The notes beneath the pieces were generated by a model. That model saw only the letters and a list, made by a program, of their open reading frames with translations, searched no databases and was not told where the DNA came from. From positions 96,001 to 160,000 of the IMG/VR virus record IMGVR_UViG_3300033148_006964: 64,000 nucleotides of DNA, one strand, 5' to 3'. The stretch is from a virus. Below, piece by piece: positions 24,000 through 43,220 of this stretch. Position 1 is the first letter of the stretch; the number at the start of each line of letters is the position of its first letter. The position numbers and the translations under genes were made by a program.

Positions 24000-24075
24000 C
24001 AGGGGTATCTGGATTCGAACCAGAGAAAATGCCAGCACCAAAAACTGGTGTGTTGAGCCGCTTCACCATACCCCT
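24000..24075 (-). tRNA. trnQ: tRNA-Gln (anticodon TTG)
   Basis: AGGGGTA/TACCCCT acceptor stem, GTG/CAC D-stem, CCAGT-TT-TTG-GT-GCTGG anticodon arm, TCTGG-TTCGAAT-CCAGA T-arm; CCA not encoded. Confidence 0.93.
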
Positions 24076-24664: not shown

Positions 24665-25408
24665 TCACTCGTATAAATAATGAGTTTCAAGATACTGCTG
24701 AAATGTTATATTAAAATACAAAGGAAGTGTCATTGCTATTTCATCCATGTGGGCATGTTCTACTTTAAGTGGTATACGTTCAGCGTTTTCATAATGATCA
24801 TAATAAAGACCATTAACCTGATCTGGAGTTATTATCTTATTAACAACACCATATTCATTAGGCACACCAGCTAATAACCCTTTAAATCCTTTAGTCCTTT
24901 GAACAATATTAAATACATGGTCTATACTATTAGGAAGAGTTAATCTGCGCTCTTTTTTACCATTAATCTTATATTTCTTAGATACACTTCTTCTATGAAA
25001 ATAAGTAGCATATCCATCAATAAAAATAGCTAAACTAATATTTAGCCTTAGTTTCTTTTTTAACATTCTTAAAGAATCTATTACTCCAAAACTTTTAGCT
25101 ATTAAAATTATATTAGCATCAAGATCAAGCATTATTAATTTATTATATATTTCACGTTCAGTTCTTTTCCCAATACATCCTCTTGCGAAGATAAAATCAA
25201 TTTTTGATGGATCTGCACATCCACACATATTAACAGCACGAAGAGATTCATAAAATAAACAGCTATGGGTTTTCTCTCTATTAGTGACATTAGATGTAAA
25301 GTGAACATTATATTTGCTTAACATATTATCTATTGGAAATTTATTTTCAGTGATCCACTCAGAACTTCTATTGTTACCTAATATGGTTATCATAATAGTT
25401 TTTTTCAA
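24665..25408 (-). CDS. alpha/beta-hydrolase-like protein
   Basis: IILIAKSFG nucleophile-elbow-like motif; true start probably TTG 25408 behind AGAAAGGTGAG. Confidence 0.5.
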   Translation of the reverse strand: MKKTIMITILGNNRSSEWITENKFPIDNMLSKYNVHFTSNVTNREKTHSCLFYESLRAVNMCGCADPSKIDFIFARGCIGKRTEREIYNKLIMLDLDANIILIAKSFGVIDSLRMLKKKLRLNISLAIFIDGYATYFHRRSVSKKYKINGKKERRLTLPNSIDHVFNIVQRTKGFKGLLAGVPNEYGVVNKIITPDQVNGLYYDHYENAERIPLKVEHAHMDEIAMTLPLYFNITFQQYLETHYLYE

Positions 25409-25438
25409 TTTATTTCTCACCTTTCTGTATTTGTTAAG

Positions 25439-25819
25439 CATTGTAGATACCTATGTCAATATCATATTATTTTTTGCCCAAAATTTCGATATTCTGTTTT
25501 AAAAGGAAATGTTGAAACCAGCTTAAAAGAAATATTGGTAGATGTTGCAAACAGGTATGAATATGAAATAATACAGATGGAAGTGATGTCAGACCATATT
25601 CATATATTTGTTGGGGCCAAACCGACGGTTGCTTCGATAGATATAGTAAGAGTTTTTAAAAGTATCACTGCTATTGAATTGTTCAAGAAATACCCAAAGT
25701 TAAAATCTTTTTATGGTAAATGTGGCTCTCTTTGGTCGGTAGGAAAATTCATATCAACTATTGGTAACGTTTCTGCTAAGACAATCAAAAAATATATTGC
25801 AGAGCAAAAGGGAAAATAA
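25439..25819 (+). pseudogene. tnpA: Y1 HUH transposase TnpA, 5'-truncated
   Basis: In-frame CQYHIIFCPKFR, DHIHIF (HUH), KKYIAEQ; no in-frame ATG upstream. Confidence 0.8.
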
Positions 25820-25822
25820 AAT

Positions 25823-26983
25823 ATGTTGATACAAAGAGGCTACAAGTACAGAATTTTCCCGACTAAAGAGCAAGAAGAATCGTTGTTTCAATGTGGTGGT
25901 AATGCCAGATTTTTATGGAATTATGTTCTTAAAACAAATCAGGATTATTATAAAGAAACTGGTAAATTTAAGTTTTATTATGAATTAGCTATTTCATTAC
26001 CAACGCTCAAAGAAGAGTACCCCTTCCTTAAAGAATCATTTTCACAATCTTTACAAATGGTTTTACGGCAATTTGATAAAGCGTTAAAAGATTCCTTTAA
26101 AAAAGAAAAAGGATTTCCATCTTTTAAGAAGAAAATGTTGTTGAATGATAGTTTCTCCTGTCCACAAAAATGGCGATTGGGAAAAGGGTTTGTTTTCATA
26201 CCTAAAGTTGGAGAGATAAAATGGGCGAAACATAGGTCTATGAAAGGTAAACCTAAATCAATCACAATTTCACAAGATGGTAACAAATGGTATTGTTCTG
26301 TTTTGTGTGAATACAACATATCAGAACAAGAAAAAAGATATAATAATGTTGTCGGTTGTGATGTTGGTTTGAAAAATTTTGCCACGCTATCTGATAGTAT
26401 TATAATAAGTAATCCCAAGCATACTAAAAAGTATGAAAATAAGTTAGCAAAAGAACAGAGGAAATTGAATAGAAAACAAAAAGAAAGTAAAAACAGATTC
26501 AAACAAAGACTTAAGGTTAGAAAAATTCAAAACAAAATAAAAGATACTCGTAAAGATTTTCTTCATAAAACATCTAATTTAATAACCAAGAGTTATGATG
26601 GAATTGTGGTAGAGGATTTGAATATAAAAGAGATGATGAAAAATCATTATCTCGCTAAAGCAATCGGAGATGTTTCATGGTCAGAGTTTAATAGACAACT
26701 TGAATACAAATGCAGATGGAATTTTAAGCATTATATCAAAATTGGTAGATTTGAACCGACAAGTAAGATGTGCTCAAATTGTGGTTGTATCCAAGAAATG
26801 TCTTTGAATAAAAGGATATTTAATTGTTCTGATTGCGGAGTATCAATAGATAGAGATTTAAATGCATCTTTAAATATTAGAAATATAGGATTAAGTACCG
26901 TAGGGCATACGGGAAATTACGCTTGTGGAGATAGTTCGTCGGAATTGTCGTTGAGGCAAGAAAAAGAATGCTTAGTAAACTAA
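25823..26983 (+). CDS. tnpB: RNA-guided endonuclease TnpB
   Basis: HTH-OrfB N-term; RuvC D (GCDVG), E (VVEDL), D (DRDLNAS); CSNCG/CSDCG zinc ribbon. Confidence 0.93.
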   Translation: MLIQRGYKYRIFPTKEQEESLFQCGGNARFLWNYVLKTNQDYYKETGKFKFYYELAISLPTLKEEYPFLKESFSQSLQMVLRQFDKALKDSFKKEKGFPSFKKKMLLNDSFSCPQKWRLGKGFVFIPKVGEIKWAKHRSMKGKPKSITISQDGNKWYCSVLCEYNISEQEKRYNNVVGCDVGLKNFATLSDSIIISNPKHTKKYENKLAKEQRKLNRKQKESKNRFKQRLKVRKIQNKIKDTRKDFLHKTSNLITKSYDGIVVEDLNIKEMMKNHYLAKAIGDVSWSEFNRQLEYKCRWNFKHYIKIGRFEPTSKMCSNCGCIQEMSLNKRIFNCSDCGVSIDRDLNASLNIRNIGLSTVGHTGNYACGDSSSELSLRQEKECLVN

Positions 26984-27224
26984 GCAGAAGCCACGGGGCT
27001 TGCCCTGTGGAGTGTCACTATAATAGTTTTTTTCAATTAGCTCCTACCTTTCTATATTTATTTAAGCGTGCGCATATCTTTTGAAAACATTTCACGAAGG
27101 CCTTTTAGTTCTTGAACTCCGCATTCTAAACAATAAACTTCATTGCCTATTCCATAGTGGCCTTCATTTTTTTTAATTTTTCTTTTACATTTTTTGCATA
27201 TCATAATAATACCTTTTTTAAAAG

Positions 27225-27605
27225 TTATTTTTTGCTTGTGTCTTCTGTGCCACGCGCTTTACATTTTAGAGGACGATGATTAAGCCAATGTATTGCTTCT
27301 TCAATCTTAGTGATGGCTATTGCATTTTCACGACAAGAAAAGTTACCATTTTGAAAATGCTGAAGACGATCAATTACAATTGCAAGAAGATCTTCCTGAT
27401 AGCAACCATTTGTTTCAAATTCTTTAACGTGGCTTTCATGGAAAGATATCTTGGCAAACTCATCGCCTTCTCCCATTGTTGTACCTTCTGGTTGAGTCGG
27501 TCTTATTTCATATTTATGGCAAGCACCACTCGCGCCAGGTTCGTCTAAACAAACTATTTGTGTAGATTTTTGAGTTCCAATTTTTAATACTCTCATTTTT
27601 ACCAC
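27225..27605 (-). CDS. tad1: Tad1-like immune-signal sponge protein, apparently degenerate
   Basis: EPGASGACHKYEI, EDLLAIVIDRLQHFQNGNFSCRENAIAITKIEEAIHWL match Tad1/Acb2-type proteins as I recall them. Confidence 0.75.
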   Translation of the reverse strand: MVKMRVLKIGTQKSTQIVCLDEPGASGACHKYEIRPTQPEGTTMGEGDEFAKISFHESHVKEFETNGCYQEDLLAIVIDRLQHFQNGNFSCRENAIAITKIEEAIHWLNHRPLKCKARGTEDTSKK

Positions 27606-28421: not shown

Positions 28422-29093
28422 TCAATTCTCAGCTACTACTCCTTTATAAATGTAAATAAGACGTTTATACTCTTTCATAACTGATGTTTTATAATTTCCT
28501 ATATAGTTTTTAGTTTTTTCATTTACTTTTATATTTTTTTTATAATCAGGACCTCCCAAATATCTCCTAACGGCATGGGTAATTTTTGCTTGATGCGTAG
28601 TTTCATTACTAACAACATATCCATCTGAAAAATAAGATAATCCTATTACTAAGTTTAATAAATCATTCCAAAGAGTTTCGTTTTCTACATATTTAATATC
28701 AAGTTTTTTACATACCTCTTCAGCCGTACCTTCTAATATTTGAGCAATTCCTTTAGCTCCTCCTTCTGATTTTAATGTTGTTCTAAAATTAGATTCAATC
28801 CTTATAAGAGCGGCGTATACTTCCCAATCTACTCCCGTTGATTCTGCAAAATCATAAAATATTACACTATAGTATTTACCTTCCCAATGGGATAAACCAT
28901 AGGCAATGTGTAAAGTCTTTTCCATATTAATAATGGTCCGATCCTTTAGCTGATATTCTTTTATCAGTTCTTTACTAATTGCAAGATCAGTCTTAAGTGA
29001 TTTGTATCTTAACGTATAAATTTGATGAAATGCTATCATTCCAATAAAACTTATAAGTATAAAATGCGTTATAAATATTAAAAATTTTCTCAT
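28422..29093 (-). CDS. soluble lytic transglycosylase (SLT) with N-terminal membrane anchor
   Basis: ALIRIESNF (catalytic Glu), GAKGIAQI, N-terminal TM helix. Confidence 0.85.
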   Translation of the reverse strand: MRKFLIFITHFILISFIGMIAFHQIYTLRYKSLKTDLAISKELIKEYQLKDRTIINMEKTLHIAYGLSHWEGKYYSVIFYDFAESTGVDWEVYAALIRIESNFRTTLKSEGGAKGIAQILEGTAEEVCKKLDIKYVENETLWNDLLNLVIGLSYFSDGYVVSNETTHQAKITHAVRRYLGGPDYKKNIKVNEKTKNYIGNYKTSVMKEYKRLIYIYKGVVAEN

Positions 29094-29108
29094 ATATATT
29101 CCTTAATT

Positions 29109-29402
29109 TTATATTATTGAAACATCTATTAATTTTTTATCGACATTTAAACTTTCAAGTAAGACAACTATATTTCTTATGGTTTTACAATCAATAAATA
29201 TCTCTGTATTAATATCGATTTCAAAGTTATCTTCTATTTCCATAAAAAGTTCTATCTGATCAAGAGAATCAATACCAAGGTCAGATTCAAGATGACTGTC
29301 CATAATTATTTTTTCTTTTTTAATGGACAGTCTCTCAGATATTATATCAACTAGCTTTAACATTATTTTCTCTTGGTAACTTAAGCTTATTCCAGACATC
29401 AT
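29109..29402 (-). CDS. acpP: acyl carrier protein
   Basis: DLGIDSLDQIELFMEIEDNFEI with the phosphopantetheine Ser. Confidence 0.85.
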   Translation of the reverse strand: MMSGISLSYQEKIMLKLVDIISERLSIKKEKIIMDSHLESDLGIDSLDQIELFMEIEDNFEIDINTEIFIDCKTIRNIVVLLESLNVDKKLIDVSII

Positions 29403-29742
29403 CTTCTAAAAAAGCGACTCTTGATTCGCCAATATTATCACCGAATATTTCCTTAGCTGCCTTTTCTTTTATAAGCGCCCATCCCCCTGTACGATATGGA
29501 CTATCTTTATTTGTTCCATTTCTTACTGATATAAAGATAACCCCTTGTTTCATATATTCCTTGCATTTGTCACATGGTTCATAATCAAAAACACATTTTC
29601 TTGGAGCCTCTTCATCATTCTTTAAATGACCAAGTAATAGAACTTCTTTTTTGTCTTCTCCACAAAAAAAACATTTAGGTATAACTGGGTTAAGTCCATG
29701 TTTTTTACTTATTCTTAATGACATACTATTCCCCACCCCCAA
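29347..29742 (-). CDS. phage hypothetical protein, CxxC pairs
   Basis: CFFCG...PCDKC. Confidence 0.6.
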   Translation of the reverse strand: MGVGNSMSLRISKKHGLNPVIPKCFFCGEDKKEVLLLGHLKNDEEAPRKCVFDYEPCDKCKEYMKQGVIFISVRNGTNKDSPYRTGGWALIKEKAAKEIFGDNIGESRVAFLEDDVWNKLKLPRENNVKAS

Positions 29743-30235
29743 CTTAAAAAGGTACTTATAGTTTTCTTATTACCACCAGTAATCGGTTTATGTTTAATAA
29801 TCATATAACCATTTTCCGTTGCTAATTTACAAAATCTTTTAAAATGAGATTTACTTTTCCATATTGGAAGATCTTTAGTGAGACAAATTTCTAAGTGTCC
29901 TTTTTTAGCATTTACTCTAACGCTATGATCAATATACTTTAAAAACGTTTGATATTCTGCTTCTGTAATTCCAATATCTTTACTTTCAGCAGTATTTGAT
30001 ATTTCTCTTGCTATTTTAGCTGTTATCATATTGTATCCTCTGTTATAAATAAAAAAGCTGATAAAATATCAGCTTTAAATTTCTACGCCATTCCATAGAT
30101 CATCAAGAAAACATTCTGAAATTTCCTGCATAGCTTTCTCATCATTGATTTCTTGCTGTTCCGGGGCGTGGATTCTTGGATTGTACCCTATTCCCATTTT
30201 TGTTTCCTCCTTAAAATATTAATATTTTCAATATA

Positions 30236-35503: not shown

Positions 35504-36345
35504 CTTTTACTAAAATTAAATCCACCCTTCAACTAAATCAGATTTTTTAGTACGGGCCGCAGTATACTCATAATAATGTTTCCAATCTTTACCACAATTA
35601 TATACAACAAAGACATAGTCTTTACCAGATATACTTTTTATTCTACCATGTTCTACTTTAAAATCCGTTTTATAAGTAACATATTGACCTATAGAATATT
35701 CAAATTTTTTATTCACATTAATTCCTCACACTACTCTTTTTTCAAGAATAGCAATTTCTTTTTTAATTTTTTCAATCTTTGATTGTATTGATTCTTTAGT
35801 GTGTCCAAGTGCTATTAGATCCTCACCTTGAAGATAATTCGTATATTTCTTAAGATCTTTTTTACGGGCTTCTAACGCTACTTCCTGACGATTCTTTTTA
35901 GCTGCTTTGCCTCTCATAATAATCTCCTTAATTAAATTTTGATAATATTTTTTATCCTCATTATAATTATTCCATAAAATTAGGGATTATAACTTAAATG
36001 TGATGGTTAAAAAAGAGCAACCATTAATATAGTTGCTCTTTATTATTTTAAATAATGTTCTTATTACCAGGATATATAAAATGTGTCAGGTTGAGAGTGA
36101 ATAAAACCATATTTACCATTTGATAGCTGTTTAGTAATTTCTATAAATATTTCTTTATCATTAAGATCTTTATAGTCATGATGACTCATATCTATTCGGA
36201 CATTAAACTCACCATTATTCATGGCGTATCTTATATCCTTTTCAATAATATTTATAAGAACAAGTAAGCGTGGATCTTCCAGAATTTTATTGCTTAAAAC
36301 AACCTTATTTGCCATTTCGTTGACTTCTTTTGCGGACAACATAAT

Positions 36346-36888
36346 CTACTCCTTATAATCACAATTTTTAACGTAATATTTATTTTTATACTTAAACACG
36401 CAATCATCAGAACTTATATCAACATCTGCACTTGAGACGGTTTTTCCGTCTTTAGTTATTATAGTAACCCTATCAACATGGCCATATCCACCTGCACTGA
36501 AATTAAATGTTTTAATCTCACCAAAAAATACAGCTTGTTTGCGAGCATCTGCTATATTAAGTGATGTTTTTACTCCTAATATTAACACACAAGATACAAT
36601 AATTATTATGAGAATTTCTATTAGTGTAATACTACCACAATTATTTTTCTTAAGTGGTAAAATTATAAGTTTAATTAACTCTCCAACTTTTGAAAATACA
36701 AAAAACATAGCTACGATAATTATACCAATAACTGAAACGGGCCATGCTAGTGAAAGTAAAGCTATTAACACCCACAATTCACTTCCTGTAACACCAAACA
36801 TTACTCCTGATACTATTATACCAAGTAATGCTGGAATAAGATAACCTATTACCATAAAAAAATCTGAATATTGTGTTGCTTCCGTCAT
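36346..36888 (-). CDS. membrane protein with internal prepilin-like motif
   Basis: Two TM helices, then GSITLIEILIIIIV. Confidence 0.45.
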   Translation of the reverse strand: MTEATQYSDFFMVIGYLIPALLGIIVSGVMFGVTGSELWVLIALLSLAWPVSVIGIIIVAMFFVFSKVGELIKLIILPLKKNNCGSITLIEILIIIIVSCVLILGVKTSLNIADARKQAVFFGEIKTFNFSAGGYGHVDRVTIITKDGKTVSSADVDISSDDCVFKYKNKYYVKNCDYKE

Positions 36889-37562
36889 AATTTTTTCTCC
36901 TTTATACTGATTTTATAAAAAGCTTTCTATCTGAACGCCATTGGTATCCAAATTGTCTTCTTAACTCATCAAAAAAGTCTGTAAGCTCATGCTCGGCTAT
37001 TGTGTCAAACATTTCACGATCGGTTTCACAGTTTTGGTCTTGTGCAAAACTTCTCGCAAGCTTAAGCGCTTCGGCTTTATTTAGATGTATTGCTTTCATT
37101 TTTATTCCCTTTCTTTGTTTATTCTTCTTCTGGTACCCCATATTTAGCCTCAAGAATACCCTCAATTCTTATTATTTAATCACATCATCCTTTTGTTCAT
37201 AAGCGCAGCGTTCAATTATTATACCTTTGCATGGATAAGTAGTACCTGGATAACTTTCACTATTGCCCATCATTATAAAATTATCTGCTAATCTAAAACT
37301 TTCGTTAATAGCACCCTTATCTGTATAACCATCTTCCATACGCCTTTCCATAAGTTTTTGATAAATGGGGAGGGCTATAGACATACGTTTATTAATACGT
37401 TGTTGGTCAAGACTTTCTTTACAATCCTTTGACATATTATATCTCCTTTAATTGGTAACATAAAAACGATAACATTTGTCACACGGTTTACTAATAGATA
37501 TACCATGTTTACATTTTCTTCTAGCCTTAAGTGATTTTTCTTTGTTAGCAATTATGTTTGAT

Positions 37563-41963: not shown

Positions 41964-43220
41964 AAAAATTGTGTAAGGAAACCACCACGCTTGTCGTGGT
42001 GGAGGAATTACACCTTTTCCTTTCTTTTAAATTAATATTTGACATCTTCAATACTTTAATATATATTATATACATATGAAAACTATTAGAACAATGAAAA
42101 TAAAAATATCTGGTCAACATAAAGCTGATACCATCTTAGTTAACTGGTTATCTGCAGCTAATTGGTTGTCCAGTATTGTTTATAAAGTTAAAGATGTTAA
42201 TTCAAATAGACTTCATAAAGCATATTATCATATTGTTAGAGAAAAGTTTAATTTGCCATCACAGCTTACATGTACATTGTTTAGAACAATATCTGCAACC
42301 TATAAAACACAGAGATCGTCTAAGCAATGGAATCTTGCAAATTATAAACGTAAGACCATACCAATTGTTTGGAAAAGAGATTTTTCAATTACAAAAAAAG
42401 GTGTAACATTATGGTCAGATATAATTAAATTAAATGATCCAAGAAAAATTTCAGATCATTGGAAAGATTCAAAATTATTATTTGTTAAAAAACAATGGTA
42501 TTTAATCCTTTCTTATGAAATTGAAATTCCAGATAATAAAAAGACTGGAACCATAGTTGGTGTTGACCAAGGTATTAAGAGAATCTTTGTAGCATCTGAT
42601 TCTAATAACAATAAACTTTTTTATAAAGCAAATCATTTAAATCATAAAATTTCTAGTATACAAAAAACCAGGTCTAAAATACAAGCGGTTGGATCTCGAT
42701 CTGCAAAAAGGCTTCTGAAAAGAATGTCTAACCATCAAGCTTCCGTAACCGAATATGCTATACATATTGCTTCTAAAAGACTTGTAGAATGGGCTGATTC
42801 TGTTGGTGCTAGAAAAATAGTGGTTGAAGATTTGTCAAATATAAGATTCGCAGGAAAAAATAAGGGGAAACAGTTACGTAGTAAATTAAATAAATGGTCT
42901 TATGGTATGTTTACATTTTGTACAACATATAAGGCTGCAGTTAAAGGTATTGCTGTTGAAACTGTATCTCCCAGAAACACATCCAGGATGTGTAATAAAT
43001 GCGGTCATATTGATGAATCTAATAGGCATGGTTTAAAATTTAACTGTCGTGCCTGCGGATATACGGCAGACGCAGATTGGAACGCTAGCAAGAATATTGC
43101 TAGTCGTTACATATCCATTGAGTTAAACTCAAGGGATAAGGGGAGCCATAAATCCCCCAAAAAACGAGTTGTCAGTTAGCTACGTTTAAAACCTCTCCCC
43201 TTGTGGGAGAGGTAATTTAT
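41964..43220 (+). mobile_element. non-autonomous IS200/IS605-family element (tnpB only)
   Basis: Left hairpin CCACCACG-CTTGT-CGTGGTGG with guide GAAA predicts target TCAT (seen at 41960-41963); right hairpin CCTCTCCC-CTTGT-GGGAGAGG with guide AAAA predicts the TTAT end (43217-43220). Confidence 0.88.
42076..43179 (+). CDS. tnpB: RNA-guided endonuclease TnpB
   Basis: RuvC D (GVDQG), E (VVEDL), D (DADWNASKNI); CNKCG/CRACG zinc ribbon. Confidence 0.92.
   Translation: MKTIRTMKIKISGQHKADTILVNWLSAANWLSSIVYKVKDVNSNRLHKAYYHIVREKFNLPSQLTCTLFRTISATYKTQRSSKQWNLANYKRKTIPIVWKRDFSITKKGVTLWSDIIKLNDPRKISDHWKDSKLLFVKKQWYLILSYEIEIPDNKKTGTIVGVDQGIKRIFVASDSNNNKLFYKANHLNHKISSIQKTRSKIQAVGSRSAKRLLKRMSNHQASVTEYAIHIASKRLVEWADSVGARKIVVEDLSNIRFAGKNKGKQLRSKLNKWSYGMFTFCTTYKAAVKGIAVETVSPRNTSRMCNKCGHIDESNRHGLKFNCRACGYTADADWNASKNIASRYISIELNSRDKGSHKSPKKRVVS

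Follow-up and report, generated by a model that had tools for sequence, protein, structure and literature searches.

A 5′-truncated IS200/IS605 element beside a rebuilt empty site in a phage genome, a likely recombination scar

The Locus

The window analyzed here is a 64,000-nt stretch of DNA, bases 96,001-160,000 of the IMG/VR record IMGVR_UViG_3300033148_006964, a metagenome-assembled virus genome of 180,926 bp that was judged complete, and its subject is an insertion sequence (IS) of the IS200/IS605 family lying between two imperfect copies of the start region of a phage gene, here called gene X. The element is a 5′-truncated member of the family, of the tnpA-tnpB type, with TTAT as its transposon-adjacent motif (TAM). 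Cas12 descends from TnpB, a nuclease whose natural role is cleavage of the empty site of its own transposon. At this locus such a site stands next to the element in the same genome, beside the cognate TAM, and differs from the predicted TnpB guide at a single position. The features are as follows (window coordinates).

24665-25408, minus strand: gene X, the interrupted and restored phage gene, 247 aa from a TTG at 25408 (open reading frame, ORF; homologues P0002-P0004)
25387-25390, plus strand: TTAT, TAM and insertion site of the IS family (13 of 13 relatives; gene X frame)
25391-25439, no strand assigned: left copy of the gene-start region, in place of the left part of the IS, ending exactly where similarity to full copies begins
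25391-25410, plus strand: near-cognate TnpB target, directly 3′ of TTAT (19/20 matches to the predicted guide)
25440-25819, plus strand: tnpA remnant, codons 9-134 of a Y1/HUH transposase (Pfam Y1_Tnp)
25823-26983, plus strand: tnpB, 386 aa, uninterrupted (Pfam, structure match)
26849-27018, plus strand: predicted guide-RNA (omega/reRNA) scaffold and right-end hairpin (RNAalifold, 11 copies)
~26898-26912, 26922-26960, 26969-26986 and 26991-27010, plus strand: scaffold stems, the last being the right-end hairpin
27019-27068, no strand assigned: right copy of the gene-start region, the original target flank (direct reading, alignment)
27019-27038, plus strand: predicted 20-nt guide, the first bases of the right flank (right-end boundary and family rule)
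27058-27204, minus strand: upstream 48-aa CxxC...CxxC gene, its last codons and stop inside the right copy

The tnpA remnant matches Pfam Y1_Tnp over profile positions 2-121 of 121 (E = 5.6e-35) and retains the HUH motif (HIH) and the context of the C-terminal Tyr. Its frame is open, without stops or frameshifts across 126 codons, and holds no ATG, GTG or TTG before 25535; full copies start eight codons upstream. In tnpB, the domains HTH_OrfB_IS605, OrfB_IS605 and Cas12f1-like TNB all score above the Pfam cut-offs, and among solved structures the nearest are 8h1j and 8bf8 of ISDra2 TnpB (E = 3e-54). The RuvC D, E and D motif contexts are aligned and present, and the C-terminus is of full length. 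No Rfam model matches the guide-RNA region; RNAalifold on 11 copies gave 42 consensus pairs, 12 of them with compensatory changes, and the window copy retains every stem. Read on the minus strand, the stem at 26969-26986 is a 7-bp hairpin followed by a T-run, resembling an intrinsic terminator. This hairpin is conserved in all copies because the same sequence is a guide-RNA stem, and from its sequence it could end minus-strand transcripts of the upstream phage genes before they reach gene X.

Element Boundaries, TAM, and Full-Length Relatives

Related copies were fetched by protein-guided scans, nine from IMG/VR and five from contigs of metagenome-assembled genomes (MAGs), with 71-86% amino-acid identity; the window tnpB is 80-83% identical to the nine IMG/VR copies. 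The MAG contigs are bacterial (labels: Syntrophomonadaceae and other taxa) and supplied additional left and right ends, with no reliable host assignment for any of them. On the right, BLAST similarity stops at 27018-27021 in most IMG/VR loci, and 11 related copies all terminate in ...GTCAC with unrelated flanks beyond, which places the right end of the window copy at 27018|27019. On the left, BLAST similarity to full copies begins only at 25439/25440, inside tnpA codon 9, and the sequence to the left of 25439 matches none of them.

TTAT precedes all 13 left ends in related loci, and GTTAT 12 of the 13; the window reads GGTTAT at 25385-25390. Since gene X is in frame only when TTAT is counted as flank, TTAT belongs to the flank. 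Insertion in the 13 intact relatives is 3′ of TTAT and without target-site duplication, and the 49-bp imperfect repeat at the window locus is not a target-site duplication. Leftward of the breakpoint, full copies contain tnpA codons 1-8, a 53-aa ORF overlapping the tnpA start, a promoter-like TTGACA-17-TATATT site and a left-end hairpin. All of these are gone from the window copy, which keeps 1,579 bp of a full element of ~1.89 kb and has lost ~310 bp. The original prediction, made from the letters alone, had the left end and the tnpA start missing and a TAM resembling TTAT, and had named a left sequence shared with intact copies as one of the findings that would undo it. The relatives bear out the TAM and the missing parts, with a loss larger than had been claimed, and no related copy has the left sequence.

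Membership in the IS200/IS605 family is thus indicated by a Y1 TnpA, the TnpB domains, insertion by the TTAT rule and a structured guide RNA. Of the hairpins expected at both ends, the right-end hairpin is present and the left-end hairpin, seen in 13 related copies, is absent, so the window copy is a truncated member and not a complete element. With no left end, no tnpA start codon and no other tnpA in the genome, where this remnant is the sole one, the element is immobilised, as had been proposed.

The 53-aa ORF of the full copies has a weak RHH_1 match (E = 6e-4, just below the cut-off). It is conserved at L005:1934-2095 and likewise in the related loci L003, L004, L006, L007, L009 and L010, and overlaps the tnpA start codon; the TTGACA-17-TATATT site in the left end lies ahead of it. 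The RHH ORF, tnpA and tnpB together make up a three-gene form of IS200/IS605 that carries a possible autoregulator. At L008:2360-3696 there is a derivative of this IS with tnpB only, its left end and promoter joined straight to tnpB, inserted after TTAT in a hairpin loop that closely follows a phage tRNA gene. The bases before the position of the tnpA breakpoint end, in full copies, in TCAC (L005:2108-2118), the same four bases that precede the right-end cleavage site, a likeness that we treat as coincidence.

The Flank Repeat and the Restored Gene

The two copies of the gene-start region, 25391-25439 and 27019-27068, are identical in 41 of 50 alignment columns (~82%), with seven substitutions and two 1-base indels. 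Their similarity is far beyond chance: by local alignment the pair scores 54, against a maximum of 28 among 4,905 control windows that follow TTAT in the 181-kb genome. Positions 2-20 of the repeat form an exact 19-mer, a pair that is unique in the genome; position 1 is C in the left copy and T in the right, and the other six substitutions and both indels fall after position 20. The phage genome contains no other sequence from which the left copy could have come.

Each copy, read on the minus strand, has a Shine-Dalgarno-like site together with TTG AAA AAA ACT ATT, the four codons after the TTG being identical. The left copy comprises a homologue of the upstream gene's last codons, the Shine-Dalgarno site, the TTG start and five codons; it translates as MKKTIMIT... 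and continues in frame into gene X (MKKTIMITILGNN...), and it therefore corresponds to the 'empty-site' allele. Joining TTAT to the right flank instead gives MKKTIIIT..., the same protein with Ile replacing Met. In its present position, the Shine-Dalgarno site and TTG (27036) of the right copy are orphaned: they read into the IS and meet a stop after 17 codons. This copy also overlaps the stop codon of the upstream 48-aa gene. Direct reading thus agrees with the earlier claims that the flanks are ~80% identical, that each carries a ribosome site with the same minus-strand codons, and that TTAT joined to the right flank rebuilds an in-frame gene.

Distant gene X homologues begin MKTIVITVLGNN and MKDLVISVLGNN, sharing a common N-terminus, and this match confirms the TTG at 25408 as the true start of gene X. 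A longer call of 258 aa starts at an ATG at 25441 that was formed by the junction (25436-25441; the reverse complement of the tnpA His-9 codon), and its 11 extra N-terminal residues are an artefact. Gene X has no Pfam or PHROG match, and a protein atlas leads only to viral hypothetical and Abhydrolase clusters; it is possibly alpha/beta-hydrolase-like.

The Predicted Guide and Its Near-Match in cis

The guides of IS200/IS605 TnpB proteins derive from the right flank (10.1101/2023.03.14.532601). By this rule the guide at the window locus starts at 27019, and the left copy matches it at 19 of 20 positions with one mismatch at the TAM-adjacent base, in line with the earlier reading. Position 1 of the target is C and that of the guide is T, which would place an rU·dG wobble on the target strand. 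The self-target adjoins the cognate TAM and lies 1.6 kb from the guide in the same genome. ISDra2 TnpB reportedly cuts 15-21 nt from the TAM, and a cut zone so placed would here cover the TTG start of gene X and the spacer to its ribosome site. If TnpB did cut the left copy, the break would fall between two direct repeats and should favour loss of the element; that the element is still there fits low TnpB activity.

Signs of the state of the nuclease are mixed. The only recognisable promoter of the element is deleted in the window copy, and tnpB is antisense to all its neighbours and to the whole minus-strand gene block that runs over ~90-160 kb of the genome. A promoter scan upstream of tnpA and tnpB was not above chance (19 sites against 15.6 expected) and neither shows nor excludes expression. 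Changes specific to the window tnpB number 25 nonsynonymous to 14 synonymous, versus 69:91 in other copies (Fisher p = 0.02). From these patterns we infer that the nuclease is probably poorly expressed and beginning to decay.

How the Junction Formed

We consider it moderately probable that one illegitimate crossover between diverged IS-free and IS-bearing alleles left behind the restored gene and the dead transposon. The IS would originally have inserted after TTAT in codons 6-7 of gene X, separating the gene from its ribosome site and start codon. A later, single illegitimate crossover would then have joined two diverged versions of the locus with microhomology of no more than 1-2 nt (at most the C at 25439). 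From the IS-free version would have come the body of gene X, TTAT and that version's 49-bp start region, reaching to the end of the upstream gene; the IS-bearing version, from a related phage, would have supplied everything from tnpA codon 9 rightward. The product would be a whole gene X next to a transposon without left-end hairpin, tnpA start, RHH ORF or element promoter, in which tnpB and the guide-RNA scaffold were left structurally intact. As TnpB takes its guide from the right flank, that guide would now match the restored site in cis at all but one of its 20 positions. We see both this self-match and the single C/T difference as by-products of bringing together two alleles of a conserved translation-start region, and not as an evolved immunity device.

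Evidence that the left copy was already diverged comes from the tnpA remnant, which has been dead since the junction formed (no start codon, no left end) and can serve as a clock. Compared with intact copies, it has a nonsynonymous divergence (dN) of 0.036-0.052 and a dN/dS ratio (omega) of 0.03-0.07, equal to those of intact-versus-intact pairs, at a synonymous divergence (dS) of 0.7-1.2. Its window-specific changes (nine synonymous, five nonsynonymous) resemble those of other copies (30:17), the nonsynonymous share being below the neutral expectation (p = 0.002). Neutral decay is nearly absent, and the truncation is therefore recent. In a rough calculation, taking all five nonsynonymous changes over ~290 sites as post-truncation yields ~0.017 neutral divergence per site. 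Two 50-nt copies drifting in place would then be predicted to show ~1.7 differences, and nine are seen (rough Poisson p ~7e-5), which implies that the left copy had already diverged when the junction formed. The earlier proposal that the gene was restored by a diverged allele gains support from this argument.

Several observations weigh against this account. Neither parental allele has been seen, since no IS-free or fully IS-bearing sister phage turned up in any collection searched. The left copy has the frame of the upstream gene without a stop where the right copy has one, so that the donor allele either differed in gene structure or changed following the event. For the condition of the nuclease, pairwise omega of tnpB (0.07-0.10 versus 0.06-0.09) is not clearly raised, which leaves its decay weakly based, and the intact tnpB, the catalytic motif contexts and the full set of guide-RNA stems fit a still-used nuclease too.

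The search for IS-free relatives whose alleles could be compared, which the original prediction had put forward as a check, was carried out in GenBank phages, IMG/VR, a set of 5.8 billion proteins and metagenomes, and none was found. In DNA searches of GenBank phages, no close relative of this phage appeared; the left flank had no match and the right flank only short Tad1-like matches. The gene X protein has no match in IMG/VR and is absent from the five IMG/VR records that carry the same IS. Among the 5.8 billion proteins it has only three homologues (P0002-P0004, 40-53% identity), on contigs too distant for comparison at the DNA level. The exact 19-mer has three matches in IMG/VR and 114 in metagenomes, none with homologous flanks, and all are therefore chance matches.

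Alternative Readings

A different reading gives the single C/T difference a function. On this reading a drive-resistant target allele (T to C at guide position 1, Ile to Met) was fixed, the element was immobilised, and TnpB with its guide was kept as a homing-endonuclease-like weapon that cuts T-allele competitors and spares its carrier. The cognate TAM, the 19/20 match in cis and the intact tnpB and scaffold all suit it, and the phage retains four further intact tnpB genes. At the residue that is Met in the left copy, gene X homologues carry Val or Ile, which makes T (Ile) look ancestral and C (Met) derived. Ymu1 TnpB no longer unwinds DNA when mismatches fall within heteroduplex positions 1-4, and its cleavage is strongly inhibited by a single mismatch at position 4, 7 or 10 (10.64898/2026.01.09.698545). 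Free-standing homing endonucleases of T-even phages provide a precedent, in that the carrier's target differs from the cleavable allele by a few substitutions, by which self is told from non-self (PMC13565253). However, the difference here is one transition, and an rU·dG wobble is the mildest possible mismatch, beside a cognate TAM. Sulfolobus islandicus TnpB7 still cuts targets with single mismatches beside the cognate TAM (PMC11043419), and TnpB binding shows little seed dependence (10.1101/2023.03.14.532601). Moreover, five codons were free for synonymous recoding and were not recoded, and the remaining divergence falls entirely outside the 20 nt of the guide, a pattern contrary to the one that selection for escape would be expected to leave. 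One difference in 20 positions landing in the seed is statistically unremarkable, the element promoter is deleted with tnpB antisense to its neighbours, and no T-allele competitor phage is known. We regard this reading as unlikely. The claims of the original prediction that the allele escapes its own TnpB and that the nuclease was kept as a weapon are possible but went unsupported. Against them stand the single wobble at a cognate TAM, the other divergence lying outside the guide region, the lost promoter, the antisense position of tnpB and its modest nonsynonymous excess.

A more specific form of the same idea would have TnpB turned from a transposon-borne nuclease of 'restorative homing' into a free-standing gene drive of the intronless-homing type, beside an intact functional target. 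The carrier would be spared by one TAM-adjacent wobble, a natural drive-resistance allele, and co-infecting relatives with the T allele would be cut and converted; this we rate as quite unlikely.

The repeat could also have arisen in place, with the right flank duplicated onto the left junction (unequal exchange of an IS-bearing genome with an excised sister genome is one route) and the two copies drifting apart afterwards. Such a history does not require a second phage lineage, precise TnpA excision would provide the IS-free sister genome, and the distal part of the left copy, freed from the constraint of the upstream gene's stop codon, does differ there. It is nonetheless improbable: the tnpA remnant lacks neutral decay (its dN is that of intact copies, its frame is free of stops and frameshifts, and its nonsynonymous to synonymous changes stand at 5:9), and drift is thereby limited to ~2 differences, against the nine seen, two of them indels.

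Yet another possibility is that the contig merges reads of IS-free and IS-bearing strains, so that the junction exists in no single molecule. The record was assembled from a metagenome, and mixed populations with and without the IS are expected for such elements. On the other hand, the two sources share no more than 1-2 nt at 25439/25440, so that no k-mer path should have been able to build the junction. The only shared word, of 19 nt, is below the usual k-mers of assemblers, and a join at this 19-mer would yield a clean IS-free or IS-bearing allele and not the structure observed. We consider an assembly chimera very improbable.

Finally, it is highly improbable that a TnpB-guide complex binds the restored gene start without cutting and represses gene X, as in loci of TldR, the nuclease-dead TnpB-derived repressors: the target does cover the ribosome site and start codon of gene X beside the cognate TAM, the element is immobilised and the logic is that of TldR loci (10.1101/2023.11.30.569447), but the RuvC D/E/D motif contexts and full C-terminus are retained, expression has left no sign (promoter scan, antisense position), and the arrangement is a single instance.

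Three other origins of the junction were rejected. A TnpB cut followed by end-joining does not account for a left copy that extends 49 nt past the TAM, given cutting at ~15-21 nt; an aberrant TnpA-mediated event would call for a left-end hairpin near the junction, where there is none, and for a left-copy side ending in TTAT, which it does not; and the left copy has no source elsewhere in the same genome.

Comparison With Known Systems

In its general anatomy the element resembles ISDra2 of Deinococcus radiodurans and IS608 of Helicobacter pylori. It shares with them a Y1/HUH TnpA and an RNA-guided-type TnpB, a subterminal right-end hairpin, integration on the 3′ side of a fixed short motif (the 13 intact relatives show no target duplication), and a structured guide RNA over the tnpB 3′ end and right end, whose guide comes from the right flank. 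It differs in its TAM, which is TTAT and not TTGAT or TTAC, and in the third, RHH-like ORF that its full relatives add ahead of tnpA. The window copy differs further in lacking left end, promoter, RHH ORF and tnpA start, and in having on its two sides an imperfect 49-bp repeat, by which its own empty site is re-created in cis.

Derivatives of IS200/IS605 that are tnpB-only or truncated, such as IS609 in E. coli K-12 and the copy at L008, have likewise lost tnpA function and kept tnpB with the guide scaffold. Those, however, keep both transposon ends and are mobilisable in trans, whereas the window copy is without left end and promoter and has acquired a copy of its target. In TldR loci, too, the guide of an immobilised TnpB-family gene is directed, next to a cognate TAM, at the 5′ region of a gene close by. 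The window tnpB is not a TldR, as its D/E/D contexts and full-length C-terminus are present, and its arrangement, unlike that of TldR loci, is not conserved across genomes. The intronless homing of SegF, SegG, and Mob in T-even phages is alike in that a nuclease gene lies beside, and not inside, an intact copy of its target in a phage. Recognition here would instead be RNA-guided, and the target difference is one wobble position; the likeness lies in the arrangement of nuclease gene and target.

The locus is most likely a recombination scar and not a proven weapon. It nevertheless amounts to a natural construct, with an empty site rebuilt beside the element, a cognate TAM, and one wobble at guide position 1. 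An active nuclease would have one of three consequences: self-cleavage of the phage, deletion of the element through the 19-49 bp repeats, or self-immunity conferred by one wobble. Each of these outcomes bears on RNA-guided selfish nucleases in viruses and on the origin of drive-resistance alleles. With a silent nuclease, the locus would simply illustrate clearly how a phage repairs an IS-hit gene by recombination with a diverged relative. The related loci, for their part, define an undescribed three-gene IS200/IS605 variant (RHH ORF, tnpA, tnpB; TAM TTAT) that circulates in large phages.

Other tnpB Genes and Neighbouring Features

The phage genome is AT-rich and encodes five intact TnpB-family ORFs of 367-409 aa, all on the plus strand of the record. 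The four besides the one studied are 29-41% identical to it and lie at the following positions.

42076-43179 of the window, plus strand: other tnpB ORF, the only one of the four inside the window
28782-29972, 35992-37164 and 171006-172235 of the genome, plus strand: other tnpB ORFs, outside the window

These four loci are without tnpA, and none of them has a flank repeat. Two of the phage's tnpB ORFs are antisense to their neighbours.

Of the genes near the IS, the upstream 48-aa CxxC gene has no family match in Pfam or PHROG. Two genes upstream of the IS, at 27225-27605 on the minus strand, a 126-aa protein matches Acb2/Tad1 with 26.6 bits (Pfam cut-off 27) and PHROG 2428 with E = 8e-27, and is likely, from these matches, a Tad1-like anti-defence sponge. 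On the other side, the minus strand has a tRNA gene at 24000-24075 (Rfam RF00005, 50.7 bits), ~600 bp downstream of gene X.

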